From the NCBI RefSeq assembly GCF_055900595.2, contig NZ_JBVWEU010000003.1: a stretch of DNA of 64,000 nt, one strand, 5' to 3'. The position numbers and the translations under genes are program-made. Below the pieces are notes generated by a model. The model ran no database searches. It saw only the letters and a program-made list of their open reading frames with translations, and was not told where the DNA came from. Shown here piece by piece: positions 1-15,662 of the stretch; position 1 is the stretch's first letter; the number at the start of each line of letters is the position of its first letter. The stretch is from a plasmid.

Positions 1-864
1 CTGAACCAGACCTCATTTACTGAAAGCACATACCGTCAGGTAAAGAACCCGAATCCGGTATTCACACCCCGTGAAGGTGCCGGGACGCTGAAGTTCTGCG
101 AAAAACTGATGGAAAAGGCCGTGGGCTTCACCTCCCGTTTTGATTTTGCCGCGCATGTGGCGTATGCCCGTTCGCGCGGCCTGCGCCGGCGTATGCCGCC
201 GGTGCTGCGCCGCCGGGCGATTGATGCGCTGCTGCAGGGGCTGTGTTTCCACTATGACCCGCTGGCCAACCGCGTGCAGTGCTCCATCACCACGCTGGCC
301 ATTGAGTGCGGACTGGCGACGGAGTCTGAGGCCGGGAAACTCTCCATCACCCGTGCCACCCGTGCCCTGAAGTTCCTGGCTGAGCTGGGGCTGATAACCT
401 ACCAGACGGAATACGACCCGACAATTGGCTGTAATATCCCGACCGACATCACGTTCACGCCGGCACTGTTTGCCTCACTCGATATCTCAGAAGAGGCAGT
501 GGCTTCCGCACGCCGCAGCCGCGTGGAATGGGAAAACAGGCTGCGCAAAAAGCAGGGGCTGGATGCGCTGGGTATGGATGAACTGATAGCGAAAGCCTGG
601 CGTTTTGTGCGCGAGCGTTTCCGCAGTTATCAGGCAGAGCTTAAGTCCCACGGCATGAAACGTGCCCGTGCGCGCCGCGATGCAGGCAGGACCCGTCAGG
701 ACATTGTCACCCTGGTGAAACGGCAGCTGACGCGTGAAATTGCGGAAGGGCGTTTCCGGGGAAGCCTGGAAACCGTGAAGCGCGAAATCGACCGTCGCGT
801 GAAGGAGCGCATGATAATGTCGCGGAACAACAACTACACACGGCTGGCCACAGCCTCACCCTGA
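1..864 (+). CDS. repA: Replication initiator RepA1/RepZ family, 5' end outside window
   Basis: Frame 1 is open from base 1; translation (…[39 protein letters not shown]…RLATASP) matches my recollection of FII/I-complex RepA1 proteins. Confidence 0.85.
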
Positions 865-899
865 GAGTGACCTCATCTGAATAATCCGGCCTGCGCCGG

Positions 900-1400
900 A
901 GGCTTCCGCACGTCTGAAGCCCGGTGACGCACAAAAAAGCAGCACAGCACACAAAAAACAGCCTCATTATCTGCCTTCCGGCTCGCCTTGCTCCCCCTGT
1001 TTTTCACGCAAAACACGTATCACAGACGGGGAATTCTGTTTATCCACATTTAACTGCAAGGGACTTTTCCGTAAGGTTACAACCGTTCATGCTATAAAGC
1101 GCCAGCCGCAGGCGTTACAGGGTGCAATGTTTCTTTTAAACCCCAGTACTGTATTTCCTTTAAACTACTTAATTACTTCCATTTAAAAAGAAAACCTGTT
1201 CAGTGCCTGTCCTGTGGACAGACAAATATGCACCTCCCACGCTGACGCGCGGGCCCCGAACCTCACCGTTCTGGAACCACAACAAAAAAACATCAGAAAT
1301 AAAAACACCACACAAACGCAGCACCGTGCCCACCCCTCATAACTGAAAAGCGAGGCCGCCCCCGCCCGAAGGGCGGGAACAACATCGCTTTTAATTATGA
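900..1400. other. Putative replication origin region downstream of repA (DnaA box TTATCCACA near 1040-1048, AT-rich stretch near 1140-1200, GC hairpin near 1360-1385)
   Basis: Perfect DnaA-box consensus and adjacent AT-rich tract immediately 3' of repA, as in FII-type oriR; extent not determined. Confidence 0.45.
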
Positions 1401-1819
1401 ATGTTGTAACTACATTATCATCGCTGTCAGTGTTCTGGCTGGAAGTTCTGAGTACACGCTCGTAAGCGGCCCTGACGGCCCGCTAACGCGGAGATACGCC
1501 CCGACTTCGGGTAAACCCTCGTCGGGACCACTCCGACCGCGCACAGAAACTCTCTCATGGCTGAAAGCGGGTATGGTCTGGCAGGGCTGGGGATAGGTAA
1601 GGTGAAATCTATCAATCAGTACCGGCTTACGCCGGGCTTCGGCGGTTTTACTCCTGTGCCATATGTAGCCACATCATGCCGCCTTCCATGCCGCTGGCGC
1701 GGCATATACCGGCAGTACAGCTATCTGTGTTTGATAGTATTTAAAGCGACGTTTTTTTCTTGAACCTGTGTCACTTATAAGAGACAATATACACAGGTTA
1801 AGGGAATGAGGGCGGCAAG

Positions 1820-2155
1820 ATGCCTTACACGGCGAAACGATATCAGACAGAAAACGGTGAGATCCCATACACCGACTGGATGAAAAAATTAAGACGCAAA
1901 GACCAGGCCGCAGCGTTAAAGGTGGATTCCAGAATTGCCCGCGCTATGAGCGGAAATTTCGGAGATCATAAATTTGAAAGGGACGGTGTCTGGGAATTAC
2001 GGATTGATTACGGTCCTGGTTACAGGGTTTATTATTCAATCGAAGATGGCGAAATAATTCTTCTGCTCATTGGCGGGAATAAAAAAACTCAGACAGCCGA
2101 TTTAGATAAAGCCGTTAGTTATCTGCAAGATTTTAAAAAGAGGTCAAAAAAATGA
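1820..2155 (+). CDS. RelE/ParE-superfamily toxin (HigB-like addiction module killer)
   Basis: 111-aa basic protein; 4-bp ATGA overlap with the downstream HTH antitoxin gene; toxin-first order typical of HigBA. Confidence 0.7.
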   Translation: MPYTAKRYQTENGEIPYTDWMKKLRRKDQAAALKVDSRIARAMSGNFGDHKFERDGVWELRIDYGPGYRVYYSIEDGEIILLLIGGNKKTQTADLDKAVSYLQDFKKRSKK

Positions 2156-2502
2156 CAGCCACCAAAAATGTGAAGGCGCAGAAAAATGGTTATCCGGCAT
2201 CCGTTGATCACAATGCCGCCATGATTGAAGAATTGCGCGCAGATCCTGATTATGCAAACGCTTATCTTGCTAATGCCCTGGAAGAAATAAACGAGCCTGG
2301 TGGTTTAGGCGGTTTTCTTGTTGCGCTACGTCAGGTCATCGAGGCGCGAGGGGGGATTTCCGAAGCTGCCAGGAAATCTGGCCTTGCCCGTCAGAGTATT
2401 TACCGCGCATTATCCCCGAACGGGAATCCGACCATCACAACACTTGCACAACTTACATCAGTAGCCGGATTACAGTTCACTCTCAGTAAATCCAGCCACT
2501 AA
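2152..2502 (+). CDS. HTH antitoxin (HigA-like addiction module antidote)
   Basis: 116 aa with a C-terminal HTH-like segment (SGLARQSIYRAL…TITTLAQL); translationally coupled to the toxin. Confidence 0.7.
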   Translation: MTATKNVKAQKNGYPASVDHNAAMIEELRADPDYANAYLANALEEINEPGGLGGFLVALRQVIEARGGISEAARKSGLARQSIYRALSPNGNPTITTLAQLTSVAGLQFTLSKSSH

Positions 2503-2631
2503 TCTCTCCGGTTCCCCCTGAGCGGGGGAATTTCACTGGCACTTATTGCGGGGAACAAAACCATCGGACGGGGGAAACATCTGTATTTCTGTGTGTCCTG
2601 GTGTAATACGGTGGATTTGTGTGTGTCTGGA

Positions 2632-2668
2632 AGCTTAATGCTAATGTATGCGTACATTAGCATTAAGC
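2632..2668. promoter_or_regulatory. Long near-perfect palindrome (GCTTAATGCTAATGTA…TACATTAGCATTAAGC)
   Basis: 16-bp arms read directly from the sequence in the noncoding gap between the TA pair and the finO-like gene. Confidence 0.4.
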
Positions 2669-2844
2669 CTGTTTTCCCGTCGTGTCGGGGTCAGTCTGGG
2701 AAACGTACAATATTGTGTGTTTCTTGCTGTAGGGGAACGAGGTAACGTTTACACACTCGCGAGTGAGCGGATGAAATAATATCTCATTCAGTACTCTTTT
2801 TATCTGCTGCCGTTTTTTCCGGTGATTTTTTTTCTGCATACAGA

Positions 2845-2878
2845 AAAAAAGCCTGCCCGGAGGGCAGGCATGAAAGAC
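2845..2878 (-). terminator. Rho-independent terminator-like hairpin on minus strand
   Basis: GCCTGCCC-TCCG-GGCAGGC stem followed by a T-run when read on the minus strand. Confidence 0.35.
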
Positions 2879-3220
2879 AATCGCACAGTCAGTGTTGAAA
2901 TTAATGATGTCACGCATTTTCCCGGCGGATACACAAACCATCCCGGCCAGTACCGGCGGCATCGTAATCAACGTCTGCGGGCTGTGCAATGCTCTTTTTG
3001 CTGATTTAAGATAAAGTTATTACAGCCCCTGACGGAGACGAAAACAACGGCAGACAATATACGGGAAATATAATCAGACCGTTTTAATATTATTTCCAGG
3101 AACGCGACGAAGTCAGGCAGATTTATATATTTCTGGCCGGGCTGACATTCCGGATTGGTGTATATAATAATACGTTTGTGATATATTTATAATCGGTTTT
3201 ATTATGTTGCCGGGGTATTT

Positions 3221-3844
3221 ATGGCCAGGAATCAGGAAAAGAAAACGCCCGTCATTGTGGTGAAAAAACGTCGCGTTATTTCACCTCCTGTCGTCGATAA
3301 AACAGAGACTGTCATTCCGCCTGTACCGGAAGTGGCGGTACCACCGGCAGCTGCTGATGCGCAGCTGCCAGCCCCCATCCCGGATGCGTCTCCTGCGCCT
3401 GCTGCCGTCGGAAAGAAAAGGAAAGGAAGACCACCACGCAGGCTCCTCAGAGAGCACTGGACACGGGAGTTCACCGACCAGTGCATGGAAAAGGTCAAGG
3501 CAATTTTCCCGCATCTTCGCGCTGAAGGCGGCGGTTTTCTGCCTCTCAGGGTCGGTATCTCCCGCGATATTACTGCCTGGCTGGCTGAGCACCCTGAAGC
3601 CGGACTCACCCGGGATGAATGGGACTGTGCCGTATCCTGTATCACCTCCCGGCGTGTCTATCTGTTGCGTACCGCTGTCACCGGTGCCACCCGCTATGAC
3701 CTCGATGGTAAGCCTGCCGGGCAGGTTTCTGAGGATGAGGCAAAAAATGCTCAGCGCTGGCTGGCCATCCGGGACCGCCGGTGGGAGAAAAAACAGGCCG
3801 CTCTGGCCGGGGCAACAGGCGGGGAGAATACGACCGCAAAATGA
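3221..3844 (+). CDS. FinO/ProQ-like RNA chaperone domain protein (tentative)
   Basis: 207 aa; Pro/Ala-rich N-terminus with basic KKRKGRPPRR patch, then a C-terminal domain that resembles FinO by pattern; family assignment is from memory only. Confidence 0.4.
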   Translation: MARNQEKKTPVIVVKKRRVISPPVVDKTETVIPPVPEVAVPPAAADAQLPAPIPDASPAPAAVGKKRKGRPPRRLLREHWTREFTDQCMEKVKAIFPHLRAEGGGFLPLRVGISRDITAWLAEHPEAGLTRDEWDCAVSCITSRRVYLLRTAVTGATRYDLDGKPAGQVSEDEAKNAQRWLAIRDRRWEKKQAALAGATGGENTTAK

Positions 3845-3947
3845 CTCAGCTCCCGGCCGGGCAAGCCCGTCACTCTCCGACCGCCGAACCGCAGGTTGTC
3901 ATTGACTGGCTGGCCAGAAGCTGGGGCTGGTTGCCCGCGCCATGCTG

Positions 3948-4931
3948 TTACTGTTTACGGTGCTGATTCCCTTCGCCGTAAATTTGACAATCTCCGCGCC
4001 CGGGGTGCGGAGATTGTCGCTCGTTATATGGTTTGAATGCCTGTTTTTGCTGTTTCATTTCATTTATCAAAAAATCAGTAAATGCTCTTACTTTGGGGGA
4101 CAATTGCCTGTTAGTCGGCCACATTATCATTAAGTCTCCAAAAGGGGCCATGAACTCGGTCAACACGGGATATAATTCACGTGATTCTAATGCATCATGA
4201 GCAACATATATGGGAAGGTGGGCCAGACCTAACCCATTTACTGCTGCATATAACCCCGCGTATGTGTTATTGAAAATGAAGTTTTGAGGTAGTGTTATAT
4301 TTTTATATGGTGGAATGAATGACCATGGAGCGATCTTTCCATTAGATGGATATTTAAAATGAATACAGCTATGTTCTGATAATTCCGATGGGATTTGTGG
4401 AGCGCCATATCTGTCTAAATAGGAGTAACTACCACATACAACGAAATGTTGCTTCCCTATATATCTGCTTACTAACCTTGAGTCTACGGGATTACCGCTT
4501 CTTATTGCTATATCTATACCTTCTTTTATGATATCCACAACATGGTCTTCAAAGTCAATATCTAAATGGATTTCAGGATATAATAAATTAAACTTTGATA
4601 TTAACGGCATTAATAGTTTATGCCCAAATATATGAGGTGCTGTGATGTGCAAGGTTCCCCTGGGAGTACACATATTTGATGAAATGATTTCTTTTGCACT
4701 ATATAGTTCATCTAATATTAAACAGCATCGTTCATAAAACAAGAAACCATTTTCTGTTAAACTAATACTTCTTGTTGTTCTATGGAAAAGTCTTGTTCCA
4801 AGTTCATCTTCCAGCTTTGATATACTTTTTGCAATAGCGGAGGGAGATAGCCCAAGAACTCTGGCAGCTTGTGCGTAGCTATTATGTTTTACCGCATATA
4901 CAAATGCGGTTATACCTTGGAAACCCTTCAT
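3948..4931 (-). CDS. LysR-family transcriptional regulator
   Basis: N-terminal HTH (YAQAARVLGLSPSAIAKSISKLEDELG…LFHRTTR) plus ~300-aa co-inducer domain; divergent from the adjacent operon; AT-rich codon usage. Confidence 0.85.
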   Translation of the reverse strand: MKGFQGITAFVYAVKHNSYAQAARVLGLSPSAIAKSISKLEDELGTRLFHRTTRSISLTENGFLFYERCCLILDELYSAKEIISSNMCTPRGTLHITAPHIFGHKLLMPLISKFNLLYPEIHLDIDFEDHVVDIIKEGIDIAIRSGNPVDSRLVSRYIGKQHFVVCGSYSYLDRYGAPQIPSELSEHSCIHFKYPSNGKIAPWSFIPPYKNITLPQNFIFNNTYAGLYAAVNGLGLAHLPIYVAHDALESRELYPVLTEFMAPFGDLMIMWPTNRQLSPKVRAFTDFLINEMKQQKQAFKPYNERQSPHPGRGDCQIYGEGNQHRKQ

Positions 4932-5053
4932 GATAACTAATATCTGGATTAGTGAAAAAGAGTCATGATTATAATGACTGAATTTGATATTTACAATGGG
5001 GGGAGGGGTAATAAAATCAAATCGCCAGTAATATGATTTCTCTGTAAATAGTA

Positions 5054-5906
5054 ATGGTAGGTATATTTATGAGTTACATGCCCAAGAAAATTGAAGGGGC
5101 TTCTGTTGATGAGCTTGTGCTAAAAGGGGTTAAGCATATTATTAATAATGGCGAGAGAATATCCTCAAGAGCTGGAGGGGCTATTCAGGATTACGGAGTT
5201 ATATATGTTTTGTCCGATCCCCTAAACAGAGTTCATTCCTTGAGAAACGGAGCTATGAGGTATTTTGCAAGAGAGTTGATTGCCTATTTTTCAGGGAGTC
5301 TAAAGGTTGAGGATGGATTGGCTAAGGCATCAAAGTTTTGGGCATCGCTTGCAGATGAGAACGGGAATATAAACTCAAACTATGGATACTATGTGTTCCA
5401 TGAGAAAATAGATAAATATACAAATCAATATAATTGGGCTAAATGTGTCTTGTTAAAAAACAAAGATACCAGACGAGCCATAATCAATATAAATCAGGTT
5501 CGTCATAAGTCTGACACGAAAGATTTTCCCTGTACTGTAAGTATTCAGTTTTATATTAAAGATAATGAGTTGTACTGCGAAACTAATTCTCGAAGCACAG
5601 ATATTATAACAGGATTGCCATATGATATGGGATTTTTTTTCGTTTGTTCATGAGTTAATGTGGAAAGATCTTATCGAGAATGGATTGGAAGATTTGAAAC
5701 TTGGACCAACTATAATGAAAACAACATTTACTCAGATTTATGATAAAACAATAAATAAAGCATATGAAATTCTGAATAATGAATGTAATGATCTTAATGT
5801 TATAAATATGCCAAGTGTAATATCTGCTCAGGATACTTTAAATGATATAATGTCAGGAAGTTCGAAAACGGATGTTGTTAAGTGGATATATAAATATGCA
5901 GAGTAA
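5054..5906 (+). pseudogene. Thymidylate synthase-family enzyme (ThyA / dNMP C5-hydroxymethylase-like), split by a +1 frameshift in a T8 run near 5633-5640
   Basis: ORFs 5054..5653 and 5622..5906 together align with ThyA: DTRRAI versus DSRR, FPCT versus catalytic PCH, GLPYDMGFFSFVHELMW versus GLPFNIASYALLVHMM. Seven T's would restore a single ~280-aa frame. Confidence 0.7.
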
Positions 5907-6438
5907 AAAGAAAATATTCTTAACATCAAACAATCCAGCTAAAGTAGAAGCTGTCAAAATAGTTTGTTCTAAATTATTTGATGTTTTTTCTATCAAGCAT
6001 GAGGATATAGCGTCAGGTGTTAGTGATACTCCATTTACAGATGATGAGGCTATTTTAGGATGTTATACAAGAATTAATTCATCTGAGCATAATTTAAGTG
6101 AGCATGTGGATTACATTATTGCATTAGAAGGATTGATAGAGAAAAAATCATTTGGACAATTTGTTTATGGATGGGCTGTTATAAAGGAAATGGAAAGTTC
6201 GAGTTTTTTTTATGGATGTAGTGGGAAAGTTTATTTGCCAAATCGTGTTATGCAAAAGATGTCTTCCCAGAAAAGATTGTCTGATGTTGTTCTTGAGTTG
6301 TATCCAGGAACAAGTGCTGATGAGTTAAAGTTGATAGGAACGAATGGTGTATTGACCGGTGGACTATATACGAGAGCGATGGAGTTCGAGACAGCTTTAT
6401 TGTGTGCTTTCGGTTCTATGATGACAAGTAAAGTTTAA
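5896..6438 (+). CDS. YjjX-like non-canonical purine NTP phosphatase (inosine/xanthosine triphosphatase family)
   Basis: Aligns along its length with my recollection of E. coli YjjX (NNPAKVEAV; SGVSDTPF; YGWAVIKE; C-terminal GVLTGGLYTRA). Start taken at the internal ATG (MQSKKK). Confidence 0.6.
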   Translation: MQSKKKIFLTSNNPAKVEAVKIVCSKLFDVFSIKHEDIASGVSDTPFTDDEAILGCYTRINSSEHNLSEHVDYIIALEGLIEKKSFGQFVYGWAVIKEMESSSFFYGCSGKVYLPNRVMQKMSSQKRLSDVVLELYPGTSADELKLIGTNGVLTGGLYTRAMEFETALLCAFGSMMTSKV

Positions 6439-6453
6439 AAAAAAGGTGATATT

Positions 6454-7734
6454 ATGTTATTTAAAAAAGTAAATTTTCTTGATCATCATGATATGAGCTT
6501 TAGAAGAGGTGATATCCGTGTGATGGGTAATATGATCGTACAAATAGATGATGATCTGCAACCTATTGGAGATGAAGAGTTTGTTACATTGGATCATATG
6601 ATTGTTTTACCTGGGATTGTAAATGCACATCTACATCCAAGTAAGGAGATATATGGATGTTTATATGAATCAATGAACATAAATGATGTTCTTAACTCTG
6701 TTCATAAAAACAATAAAATGGAAACATCTGATGTGCAGTTTTTGTCTTCAACTAAAGCGTTAGTAAATGCATTAAAGAAAGGTGTTACAACATTAGGGTT
6801 ATTTACTAGTAGAGTTGATAGCGATTATGTTGCTGCTAAATGTGTTGGTGGGCGTTATGTTATAAATTTTTGTCAGAGTAATTACTGGTGCGCTGATGGT
6901 GTTCCTCCTGAAAGAATAGAGATCAGAGATATTATTAAAAACTACGATTTATATAGTAAACAAAAAAATGATTCTAAGATAATATTCTCAGCTGCAACAG
7001 CTTCTGAGTTATCTGCTGATGACCAATTGATCAAAAAATGTCATGATTATGCAGCAAGTAACAATTCAAGGTTTTTTATCCACATACATGAAGGTGCTGA
7101 ACAGGTTGCAAAACATAAATTACATTTTAATGAAAGTGGCATTAGTCGATTGTTTAGACTAGGGGTTTTAGATGAATATACAACTCTAATCCATGCAACT
7201 CATCTCTTGGATAGTGATCTTGATATTATTACCAGATCTCACTGTAATATAATTCATTGCCCTGTGAGTAATAGCTTTGTTACAGCGGGAACAATGCCAT
7301 TAAGAAAAATGATATCAGTAAATAGATTTGTTGGATTGGGTACTGATGCAGCTATGGTTAATCCAGTTAATGACATTACATTTGATGCACTTTTTGCTCT
7401 ATATCATCATGGTGACAGAAATTCTAACTTGAAAGTATCTGCCAGTGAAATAATAAATATGATCACATTTAAAGGAGCTGGAGCATTAGGATTGGATAAT
7501 ATAGGACTAATTAAAGCTGGTTATAAAGCAGATCTTATTTTTTTTGACTTGGAGAATATTGATGGCGATTATATAAATACGCCCGTATCTATATTGAAAA
7601 TGTTGCATAAAGAAACACCTATACATGTAATGGTTGATGGCAAGTTTATTATATACGAACATATGTTCGTGAATTGTAATTTTAATGATGAGCTTGAAAA
7701 ATACGCTTCTTTAAAAAAAGAGATTGTGAAATGA
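6454..7734 (+). CDS. Metal-dependent amidohydrolase-superfamily deaminase (cytosine/guanine/MTA-deaminase-like)
   Basis: 426 aa with N-terminal HxH metal motif (VNAHLHP) and downstream HATHL, HCPVSN, GLGTDA motifs typical of nucleobase or nucleoside deaminases. Confidence 0.75.
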   Translation: MLFKKVNFLDHHDMSFRRGDIRVMGNMIVQIDDDLQPIGDEEFVTLDHMIVLPGIVNAHLHPSKEIYGCLYESMNINDVLNSVHKNNKMETSDVQFLSSTKALVNALKKGVTTLGLFTSRVDSDYVAAKCVGGRYVINFCQSNYWCADGVPPERIEIRDIIKNYDLYSKQKNDSKIIFSAATASELSADDQLIKKCHDYAASNNSRFFIHIHEGAEQVAKHKLHFNESGISRLFRLGVLDEYTTLIHATHLLDSDLDIITRSHCNIIHCPVSNSFVTAGTMPLRKMISVNRFVGLGTDAAMVNPVNDITFDALFALYHHGDRNSNLKVSASEIINMITFKGAGALGLDNIGLIKAGYKADLIFFDLENIDGDYINTPVSILKMLHKETPIHVMVDGKFIIYEHMFVNCNFNDELEKYASLKKEIVK

Positions 7735-8339
7735 AAAATGTTGCATTTATTTTTTCAGGGAGAGGTAGTCTCGTTACAACTGTTTTGGATGCTATTAGAG
7801 ATAGTAAGACACAATCCAGATTATCCTTAATGATTACAAATAATGTCGAGTTTGATGAGAAATTTACCCCTAAGGGTGTTGATTTGGTTGTTTTAGACCG
7901 GAATGAGTATGTGAAAAGGAATGATTTTGAGAAAAAGATAATATTTGAGTTGAAAAAAAGAAATATTAGCTTAGTTATTCTTGGAGGTTTTAAATTCATT
8001 TTTTCAGAAAAATATGTTGATCTTTTTGGAAACATTACAATAAATACACATCCATCATTACTTCCTGCTTTTCCTGGAGATAAGGCGCAACAAAGGGCTT
8101 TAGCTAAAGGAGTTATATATACTGGTGCAACAATTCATTTTATAAATGAGCATGTTGATGATGGACCTATTATTGACCAAGAGGTTGTCAGGGTTGAAGA
8201 GGGTATGACGGAGTATGAGCTAAAGGAACAAATTATTGAAGTTGAAAAGATAATGATTTACAGATCTGTTAAGGCATTTCTCGACGGAAGATTATATTTA
8301 AAAAACAATCAGGTTATATATGGGGTTGATGATGTATAA
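7731..8339 (+). CDS. PurN-like formyltransferase (GAR transformylase fold)
   Basis: 202 aa; N-terminal FIFSGRGS, NTHPSLLPAFPG (Asn/His catalytic pair) and DDGPIIDQ (catalytic Asp) match the PurN family; ATGA overlap with the upstream gene. Confidence 0.8.
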   Translation: MKNVAFIFSGRGSLVTTVLDAIRDSKTQSRLSLMITNNVEFDEKFTPKGVDLVVLDRNEYVKRNDFEKKIIFELKKRNISLVILGGFKFIFSEKYVDLFGNITINTHPSLLPAFPGDKAQQRALAKGVIYTGATIHFINEHVDDGPIIDQEVVRVEEGMTEYELKEQIIEVEKIMIYRSVKAFLDGRLYLKNNQVIYGVDDV

Positions 8340-14551: not shown

Positions 14552-15352
14552 ATGCTTTCTTCCCGGTATGTTATAGTTATTAAGATACTTTTGTCCCTGT
14601 TCTGTTCCGGAGTGAACATGATTTTTGTCTGTTCTGTTGTACTGGCTGGCAGGGCATTCACCCTGCAGTTTGCCGGGAAAATGCTGTCCCTTTCTGCAGG
14701 AGATGTGCTTCTGATTGATGATGCTGATCGTGAGGATTTTCAGCCTCATGCTGAGCATATCACTGAGGTGAGGCTGGATGAAAATATCATCCGCAGATAT
14801 CTGGAGAGTTGTGGCGGCAACCGGGAGGCCGACAACACGGTTTCTTCTGGTTTCATCAGAGTGGCCTTTGCTCATCCTGCGTTGTTGCGTGACGTTATGC
14901 ATCATCTGAATTCGGGAGGATTTGTTCATCCCGGATTTTCCGAGCAGATGTTTTTTTCCTGCATTGCTGTCTTTGCATCAAAAAAAGGCTTTCTTCCTTT
15001 GTTGCTGGGCGGAATGCTTTCTGTGGCCGGGAGAGTGAGGCATATCATCTGTACTGACCTTTCACGCCAGTGGAAGCTGCGGGATGTCAGCAGTCGTTTG
15101 TATATGAGTGAAAGTCAGCTGAAAAAGAAACTGAAGGAAGAAGGATGTTCGTTCACCGGAGTGCTTCTGGATGTGAGAATGGGCTATGCACGCCGTCTGT
15201 TACAGGCCCGTCTGCCGGTCAACAGGGTGGCCGCGCAGTGTGGTTATGTAAGCACATCTTATTTTATCTGCGTGTTCAGGGAATGTTTTGGCGTCACGCC
15301 TCACAGGATGCTGGCGCTTCAGGAGCACGGGCAGCATAAAAGTGAATGCTGA
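14552..15352 (+). CDS. AraC-family transcriptional regulator
   Basis: C-terminal double HTH (RDVSSRLYMSESQLKKKLKEEG…VAAQCGYVSTSYFICVFRECFGVTP); the true start may be the internal MIFVC. Confidence 0.7.
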   Translation: MLSSRYVIVIKILLSLFCSGVNMIFVCSVVLAGRAFTLQFAGKMLSLSAGDVLLIDDADREDFQPHAEHITEVRLDENIIRRYLESCGGNREADNTVSSGFIRVAFAHPALLRDVMHHLNSGGFVHPGFSEQMFFSCIAVFASKKGFLPLLLGGMLSVAGRVRHIICTDLSRQWKLRDVSSRLYMSESQLKKKLKEEGCSFTGVLLDVRMGYARRLLQARLPVNRVAAQCGYVSTSYFICVFRECFGVTPHRMLALQEHGQHKSEC

Positions 15353-15535
15353 GTTTGAATTATTCTGAAGAACGGCGGGCATTTTATGGAAACGGCACAT
15401 TTCCGTGTCTCTGTGGTCATTCCCGATTGCTGTTGACGCATCGCCACTCACCGGAAATGTGCCGGAATATTTTAATCGTTCTTCACCGTCTGTGAAGGTC
15501 CTGTGCTTACATTGCTGAGCGGAAAATGGCTGGTA

Positions 15536-15573
15536 GGGGTTTGAGGTCCAGTGGAACGAAAACGTACGCTAAG
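15536..15573. mobile_element. Tn3-family 38-bp terminal inverted repeat (GGGGTTTGAGGTCCAGTGGAACGAAAACGTACGCTAAG)
   Basis: Matches the Tn3/Tn21-type IR consensus (GGGG…GGAACGAAAAC…ACGCTAAG) read directly from the sequence; the element interior lies to the right. Confidence 0.6.
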
Positions 15574-15662
15574 AGAGTAATTCGTTGTTTTTAAATAGCT
15601 TAATACGTTGAATCCGGGAGAGTTTAGCCTTCCCGGATTAGATGCGACGTAATCCCATTACC

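Follow-up and report, generated by a model that had tools for sequence, protein, structure and literature searches.

The 718-bp gap at positions 2503-3220 of a 64,000-nucleotide plasmid stretch (the window; contig NZ_JBVWEU010000003.1, assembly GCF_055900595.2) lies between the helix-turn-helix (HTH) antitoxin gene of a HigBA-like toxin-antitoxin (TA) pair (2152-2502) and a gene for a ProQ/FinO-domain protein (3221-3844). Judged by sequence comparison, it was pieced together by recombination as modules were swapped on a resistance plasmid, and a palindrome and a predicted terminator within it sit in different, independently travelling modules. The gap belongs to the maintenance region 3' of an IncFII-type replicon, about 1.6-2 kb downstream of the origin region, and several E. 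coli plasmids of poultry and human origin, such as the 82-kb F-type conjugative plasmid pTB-nb3 (NZ_CP033634), carry the whole of it with 100% identity. The original prediction, made from the letters of the window, had treated the gap as one unit, a view that gave way to a patchwork of unrelated pieces on comparison; it had also overlooked a hairpin at 2512-2530, a RelE stump at 2723-2779 and the unrelated origins of the pieces. We consider it somewhat more probable than the contrary that three features coexist here, namely a mosaic in which HigBA replaced a RelE pair, a small RNA gene, and an orphan palindrome in the HigBA flank. The region is an instructive yet fairly ordinary patchwork that holds a single orphan palindrome and a reasonable, new candidate for a small RNA, and it shows that 'empty' plasmid spacers can be read as an archive of module replacement.

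Three results support the mosaic structure. First, the sub-regions of the gap, searched separately in the plasmid database PLSDB, gave clearly different distributions. Second, the IncI2 plasmid pRHBSTW-00372_4 (L071), whose TA pair is homologous to that of the window, was 82% identical to the window from 2503 to about 2705 and diverged near 2705, indicating a 3' flank that travels with the HigBA-like module. Third, a relic of a RelE/ParE toxin was identified, with 15/20 residues identical to the C-terminus of a 95-aa toxin (ending in …VAVGKRERSNVYHLASERMK before the stop; BLASTP E = 3e-7) and, at the DNA level, about 85% identity to copies of the gene, whether intact or pseudogenes. About 18 of the 95 codons are left at 2723-2779, where no full-length open reading frame (ORF) with a toxin fold was found, and the relic is non-functional. 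An intact Phd/YefM-RelE pair sits exactly at this place, after repA/repA4, in other IncF plasmids. As shown by these alignments, the HigBA-like module, together with its own 3' flank, has therefore replaced the Phd/YefM-RelE pair, the downstream neighbor of which survives intact. The arrangement resembles that of other type II TA modules in the IncF replication and maintenance region (Phd/YefM-RelE, HigBA-like, YacAB), where the slot 3' of repA and the origin holds one TA pair or another depending on the plasmid; the gap itself, in contrast, codes for no TA component.

The pair's surviving neighbor is a conserved non-coding module at 2783-3022. Homologues were found in 241 enterobacterial plasmid records and 29 metagenome contigs; chromosomes of E. 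coli, of B-type strains and others, hold relic copies within an obviously decayed plasmid-derived island. They formed two clades that were 84-100% identical to the window. The module occurred with the RelE pair and no ProQ/FinO gene in L006, L011, pZ1323CEC0010-2 and about 200 others; with the ProQ/FinO gene and no TA pair in pA17EC0191-4 (L008); and with neither left flank, foreign DNA beginning right past a run of T residues, in p1106-NDM (L003) and a metagenome contig (L030). At least four different left or right contexts were seen for this self-contained unit, whose borders fall at the T-run.

The original prediction had seen no convincing ORF in the gap, a judgement that held up: ten ORFs of 20-108 aa overlap it, and comparison of start codons, indels and substitutions found none that was conserved among the module homologues. 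We therefore regard it as highly improbable that the gap codes for one or more small proteins, for which the candidates would be a minus-strand ORF from the ATG at 2915 (MRDIINFNTDCAIV…) and plus-strand ORFs at 2871-3004 and 2904-3014. The ORFs do exist, the ATG at 2915 and the next ~15 codons are almost invariant, and in one GenBank record the region bears the annotation of a 68-aa hypothetical protein. Against coding stand the following observations: the minus-strand ORF must cross the terminator hairpin and a T-run of 6-9 nt, and its C-terminus and length vary among the variants (33-92 aa); by our own count non-synonymous changes in it number about 8 and synonymous ones 3, a near-neutral ratio; most homologues have ATA in place of the plus-strand ATG at 2871; and indels of 1-2 nt shift frames, two compensating ones giving the central part of the 2904 ORF a different frame in each clade. 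The Prokaryotic Genome Annotation Pipeline (PGAP) of NCBI annotates nothing within the gap in the identical RefSeq record.

We propose that the minus strand of the module from about 3012 to 2844 is a new small RNA gene with a predicted transcript of ~170 nt, a reading to which sequence comparison gives about an even chance. The original prediction had suggested an unannotated small RNA in the gap, and this is the best reading for the 3012-2844 segment but not for the rest. The proposal follows from the lack of a conserved ORF, the preserved stem of the predicted terminator, the peak of conservation beside it, the preserved -10 box and the homology borders past the T-run; a slightly higher minus-strand structure conservation index (SCI) and divergent, back-to-back promoter-like sites also favor it. 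The minus-strand hairpin, already noticed in the original prediction as terminator-like, proved to be real: its 8-bp stem contains 7 G-C pairs, and it was the top match of the terminator scan (fold -16.7 kcal/mol, z = -5.0). A T-run is present only on the minus-strand side of the stem, and this held in all homologues, in which it measured 6-9 nt. The loop varied among homologues (GGA, TGT, TCC or ACC on the plus strand) over the same stem, the only stem substitutions being one G-U, minus-compatible, in the entire pZ1323 clade, one A·C in L004 and two adjacent changes in L005. In L003 and L030 the homology of the module ends just past this T-run. At the other end, the -10 box TGTAAT with a weak -35 (TTGTTT) places the predicted start near A3012 and thereby yields the ~170-nt length; the -10 was kept as TGTAAT or CATAAT in both clades, between which the sequence upstream is unrelated.

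Conservation was unevenly distributed within the module. Between the window and the pZ1323 clade, 48/51 positions were identical at 2870-2919 (94%), compared with 40/51 further 5', 35/53 at 2970-3022 and 35/48 at 2780-2826 (66-78%). In the proposed mechanism, RNA polymerase would start near 3012 from the -10 TGTAAT and stop at the GC hairpin and U7 near 2844, and the nearly invariant 44 nt beside the terminator would form the functional part of the ~170-nt RNA. In this the candidate resembles small RNAs with a conserved region beside a Rho-independent terminator (e.g., plasmid RepX/FinP-like RNAs, PMC8136791): it would be ~170 nt long and is non-coding, with a candidate -10 of its own, a strong predicted terminator and 3' conservation. 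Unlike these RNAs, it matches no Rfam family (best 15-25 bits). A search of window positions 1-6000 against Rfam 15 gave no match at E <= 1; a search at E <= 10 gave only generic hairpin matches of 12-25 bits against gathering thresholds of 40-245.

The original prediction had named conservation and covariation as ways to examine a small RNA here. Conservation was found for ~3012-2844, as a non-coding module with its -10 box, terminator stem and borders just past the T-run. Covariation was not: RNAalifold on the homologues gave 40 consensus pairs with several one-sided changes, mostly G-U compatible on the minus strand, and 0 compensatory base pairs inside or outside the terminator. The SCI was 0.55 on the minus versus 0.52 on the plus strand overall, and 0.35 versus 0.28 for the body without the terminator, so that structure beyond the terminator is weak and almost strand-neutral. 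Wider searches added no diversity for covariation: a 21-base pattern of the core had 0 matches in 100,044 species genomes, and the 35 metagenome contigs matched by a 20-base pattern comprised 6 chance matches and 29 true homologues, the latter all in the same two clades.

Several of our results weigh against a small RNA gene. The SCI values are low and compensatory pairs are lacking, in a set of homologues whose diversity is too small for a fair test. Only two clades, 84-100% identical, are available, and part of their conservation could come from a recent shared ancestor. The candidate promoter at 3047-3019 has a weak -35 and was not called by the consensus scan, and the stem substitution in L004 suits the plus strand better than the minus. 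Finally, no complementary target was found on the window or the whole of pTB-nb3 (best 13 nt, E = 0.13, BLAST-short), and RNAduplex energies of the candidate RNA were within the range of shuffled controls for both.

As the main alternative, the module could be inert debris: a minus-strand gene would have vanished, leaving its untranslated tail and terminator to hitch-hike with the neighboring maintenance genes. The surroundings are indeed full of gene fragments, including the RelE stump and, beside the module in L009-L011, alkaline-phosphatase and other pseudogene pieces; the overall identity between clades (~84%) is not above that of the neighboring toxin gene DNA, and the module lacks covariation and a found target. 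Debris would not readily account for the 48/51 identity beside the terminator versus 35/53 upstream (a uniform rate gives 0.84^50 ~ 2e-4), for a self-contained unit that reappears in four or more settings and is bordered by the T-run, or for a -10 box conserved where the upstream sequence is not. We accordingly judge this alternative unlikely, though it deserves serious weight. Far less probable, in our view, is an IncFII replication element such as a Tus ter site, a single-strand initiation signal or a primosome assembly signal. The gap lies about 1.6-2 kb past the origin region, and long imperfect hairpins can be drawn on both strands; the fold z-scores of these are modest (-2.3, -2.25), however, the ter core GTTGTAAC occurs at 1076 and 1403 and not in the gap, and the module is also present in IncK2/Z plasmids and in chromosomal relics away from any IncFII origin.

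In the plasmid lineage of the window, the candidate RNA gene is back-to-back with the promoter of the neighboring ProQ/FinO-domain gene. The 207-aa protein was 53% identical to YafB/FopA of IncI1 and ~37% identical to the product of a ProQ/FinO gene that several E. coli plasmids of ~60 kb carry ~3 kb into their records. We take the ProQ/FinO genes of those plasmids to be of the IncI2 PcnR type. The promoter and leader region of the gene in the window, 3023-3220, was found in 36 plasmids, with 88% variants in pSCU-105-1 (L004) and pA17EC0191-4 (L008). Bound by FopA, the antisense RNA Inc pairs faster with repZ mRNA (PMC7491321), and PcnR, a FinO-domain protein encoded close to the replication gene, represses copy number by binding the repR leader (PMC8053102). 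In two further reports, ligands of FinO-domain chaperones (FinP, Inc and RocR type) are described as recognized by a 3' terminator hairpin and an oligo-U tail (PMC7367173, PMC9674577).

The candidate RNA carries such a 3' end, a GC terminator hairpin with a U-tail, through which the chaperone could bind it, and the divergent arrangement is suggestive because FinO-domain ligands end in this way. Similarly, the neighboring protein resembles FopA, the partner of Inc on IncI1 pCol1B9, and PcnR of IncI2 both in its FinO domain and in the place of its gene just 3' of the replication genes, and the candidate RNA resembles their ligands in its 3' end. By analogy, it is plausible that the FopA-like chaperone is the partner of the candidate RNA. 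The known ligands Inc, the repR leader and FinP are, in contrast, cis-antisense to replication or transfer genes; the candidate RNA overlaps no gene, and its antisense complementarity to the window and to pTB-nb3 was nowhere above chance. The chaperone link is circumstantial, because ~200 plasmids have the module without the ProQ/FinO gene, far more often than with it, and because the region upstream of IncI1 fopA is unrelated to the module; for the latter reason a general link of the module to fopA was dropped. FopA and PcnR set copy number, and hence the cost and persistence of resistance plasmids, and few of their RNA partners are known; a small RNA gene beside the chaperone on IncFII/IncK-type resistance plasmids from poultry and humans would be a concrete candidate partner. 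In pTB-nb3 (L072), we also observed a classical FinO (7410-7970) together with the FopA-like protein (14995-15618), i.e., two FinO-domain chaperones on one replicon.

The second element of the gap, the palindrome in the HigBA flank, was described in the original prediction as near-perfect and as spanning 2632-2668; the palindrome is real, is in fact perfect, and starts one base later, at 2633. A regulatory site, the other option that the original prediction had raised for the gap, is a role that this palindrome may have. Its 16-nt arms are 100% complementary around a 4-nt TGCG loop, and neither arm recurs in the window at <=2 mismatches. As RNA it folded at -23.6 kcal/mol on the plus and -24.9 kcal/mol on the minus strand (z = -6 and -8 versus shuffles), and about 1e-4 such palindromes are expected by chance per window (64,000 positions x ~6 loop sizes x 4^-16). 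It belongs to a family of 26-32 bp with the core ATGCTAATGTA-N4-TACATTAGCAT and a 32-bp form TTAATGCTAATGTA-TGCG-TACATTAGCATTAA. The 32-bp core was present with 100% identity and unrelated flanks in ~1,400 of the 72,556 PLSDB plasmids, the hosts being E. coli, Salmonella, Klebsiella, Enterobacter and Citrobacter and the backbones IncF, IncI1, IncX and small plasmids. Among complete E. coli genomes, 476/480 copies were on plasmids, and no copy of the core was found in phages. A scan of one genome per species found the core in Citrobacter, Phytobacter, Photorhabdus, Erwinia, Enterobacter, Lelliottia and S. diarizonae.

In 8/8 complete loci, two copies of the palindrome bracket yadA, a 157-162-aa gene so named in IncI1/R64-style annotation. 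The upstream copy ends 10-20 nt before the yadA start, beside the ribosome-binding site; nothing else upstream of the gene is conserved. YadA had no Pfam, NCBIfam or PHROG family and no named homologue beyond 'YadA' or 'cytoplasmic protein'; its AlphaFold model was confident and all-helical (predicted local distance difference test, pLDDT, 87.6) and gave no convincing fold match. A literature search with the palindrome sequence returned only a chance match to an M. tuberculosis oligonucleotide, and a search with the gene names returned nothing on function.

The bases around the core indicate how the palindrome may be read. Outside the 26-bp core they vary by locus yet stay symmetric (GCTTA/TAAGC in the window, CGATATTA/TAATATCG, CTAA/TTAG, ATTG/CAAT and AGTTAGTTA/TAACTAACT elsewhere), with a mean symmetric extension of 4.13 bp versus 2.66 bp in permuted flanks across 31 distinct contexts, a value reached in 0/10,000 flank permutations; the L071 palindrome, moreover, carries a symmetric double substitution inside the core. 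These symmetric changes point to the maintenance of arm-to-arm pairing, as a hairpin or cruciform. Given the fixed core and the co-varying outer stem, a sequence-specific factor would then recognize the palindrome as a hairpin or cruciform.

We tentatively suggest, as a reading more doubtful than not, that palindrome-yadA-palindrome is an undescribed hairpin-bounded cassette of Enterobacterales plasmids whose hairpin or cruciform is read sequence-specifically, perhaps by YadA, with solo copies as orphan sites or footprints, and that, independently, the 170-nt module may be a new small RNA working with the FopA-like chaperone. The layout, a symmetric fixed-core site on both sides of one small gene, recalls REP/REPIN elements with RAYT genes, Acinetobacter pdif modules and integron attC sites, and the likeness is in layout only. 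Like these, the palindrome also occurs as solo copies, on many replicons, with its hairpin-forming ability kept. No recombinase or transposase of the REP/RAYT or pdif type (HUH-Y1 RAYT) and no XerC/D half-sites were found, and YadA is without a known domain. Compared by eye, the palindrome bore no convincing resemblance to a Xer/dif-like site (dif/cer half-sites) or to a CRP, Fur, LacI-type or KorB operator, and these candidates were rejected.

A rather less probable explanation makes the palindrome itself the functional center, either as an operator to which a dimeric protein binds on the DNA, perhaps YadA provided in trans, or as a recombination site for module exchange. It would fit the identity of the core from E. 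coli to Photorhabdus and Erwinia while YadA drifts to 46% identity, the paired copies around yadA with the upstream one as the sole conserved sequence before the ribosome-binding site, the breakpoints of some homologous regions at or near palindromes, and the loop (TGCG, CGCA, TGCA or TGTG), the orientation of which flips between near-identical loci. The symmetric outer bases and the symmetric core double substitution, however, favor arm pairing over simple duplex reading, the arms as read from the sequence are unlike XerC/D sites, and the window palindrome is not a breakpoint, as homology with L071 runs ~40 bp past it. The window and the complete pTB-nb3 each hold one palindrome and no yadA, so that the copy in the window is an orphan; that pTB-nb3 keeps a palindrome without the gene counts against this explanation and against our main reading alike. 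The orphan may be a leftover, or the HigBA transcript may end in it as a hairpin. With CTGTTTTCCC behind it, this copy scored as terminator-like, but most other copies have no T-rich tail, and a role as a general terminator was rejected. A letter-perfect palindrome on ~2% of sequenced plasmids, around a gene without known function or fold, is an unexplained piece of plasmid architecture; it may mark a new way to package or control accessory genes.

Table 1. Features in and around the gap (positions in the window unless a locus is given)
Feature	Position	Strand	Basis or remark
IncFII-family repA	109-864		Window starts inside this gene; origin region next
HigB-like toxin, Gp49/RelE-ParE type	1820-2155		Partner HTH antitoxin 2152-2502
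3' flank travelling with HigBA-like TA module	2503-~2705	+	Alignment with IncI2 pRHBSTW-00372_4 (L071)
Hairpin TTCCCCC-TGAGC-GGGGGAA, then TTTC	2512-2530	+	10 nt past antitoxin stop
Two 19-20-bp direct repeats TGTATTTCTGTGTGTCCTGG, TGGATTTGTGTGTGTCTGG, 30 bp apart	2582-2630	+	Abut palindrome on left
Perfect palindrome GCTTAATGCTAATGTA-TGCG-TACATTAGCATTAAGC	Arms 2633-2648, 2653-2668	.	Solo copy of yadA-flanking family
RelE/ParE toxin relic, last ~18 codons and stop	2723-2779	+	BLASTP and DNA similarity
Conserved non-coding module; proposed small RNA gene ~3012-2844, ~170 nt	2783-3022	-	Homologue comparison
A/T hairpin TTTTTTTCTG-CATA-CAGAAAAAAA (T7CTG-CATA-CAGA7), inverted repeat I9	2827-2850	.	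Includes terminator T-run
Predicted intrinsic (Rho-independent) terminator: stem GCCTGCCC/GGGCAGGC, loop TCC, T7	Stem-loop 2869-2851, T-run 2850-2844	-	Terminator scan and fold
Most conserved core AATGCGTGACATCATTAATTTCAACACTGACTGTGCGATTGTCT	2875-2918	-	Immediately 5' of terminator; inside 2870-2919 comparison
Candidate small RNA promoter: -35 TTGTTT (3047-3042), 17-bp spacer, -10 TGTAAT (3024-3019)	3047-3019	-	Read from sequence; predicted start near A3012
Second promoter-like site CTGACT-16-AATAAT	3116-3089	-	Consensus scan
Promoter and leader of ProQ/FinO gene	3023-3220	+	Conserved only together with that gene
Promoter-like sites, CTGACA-18-AATAAT and a further one	3142-3171; 3176/3178-3205	+	Consensus scan
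FopA-like ProQ/FinO gene, 207 aa	3221-3844	+	Pfam ProQ/FinO E = 1e-15
Palindrome-yadA loci	L017:3004-3585 (pAPEC-O1-ColBM); L015:1976-2542; L055:2421-2960; L012, L013, L054, L056, L064, L067

Two further signals accompany the candidate small RNA gene. The A/T hairpin that includes the T-run was conserved at 22/24 positions between clades, and it could modulate termination or serve a convergent plus-strand TA transcript. The second minus-strand promoter-like site (Table 1) kept its -35 in L004 and L008, and a 6-bp deletion changed its -10 in L008 but not in L004; with a predicted start near 3081, it could give a transcript of ~240 nt in the ProQ/FinO-linked variants.

In the HigBA flank, the hairpin next to the antitoxin stop (fold -15.8 kcal/mol, z = -2.05) retained its stem in L071 with a loop change from TGAGC to TAAGC, and is probably a weak terminator of the HigBA-like operon. 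Directly 3' of this hairpin, L071 carries a 50-bp insertion relative to the window (L071:2457-2506), apart from which its TA module and 3' flank, palindrome included, are collinear with the window. Both direct repeats to the left of the palindrome (TGKATTTSTGTGTGTCYTGG; families D1/D3) were also retained in L071, and they could be a candidate protein-binding array. A third, partial copy of these repeats was present at 2713-2724.

The chromosomal surroundings of the module were seen in E. coli NEBExpress and LP50-1 (L009:2438-2743, L010:2438-2789), where a RelE fragment, the module, an alkaline-phosphatase fragment and an autotransporter gene lie beside IS30. This decayed region points to an old plasmid integration. 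On the other side of the gap, nearer the replication genes, an inverted pair of the ter core GTTGTAAC at 1076-1083 (-) and 1403-1410 (+) flanks the origin/repA4 region of the window, which contains 6 copies of the core versus 1.4 expected by chance. We take this pair to be consistent with the ter sites of R1/R100-type replicons. Beyond the ProQ/FinO gene, a low-GC island at 3948-6438 (27-40% GC versus 55-62% in repA and the ProQ/FinO gene) carries a LysR regulator, a thymidylate-synthase-like gene and an inosine/xanthosine triphosphatase gene, and its slot holds a PerC-family regulator and Tn3/IS26 elements in other plasmids.

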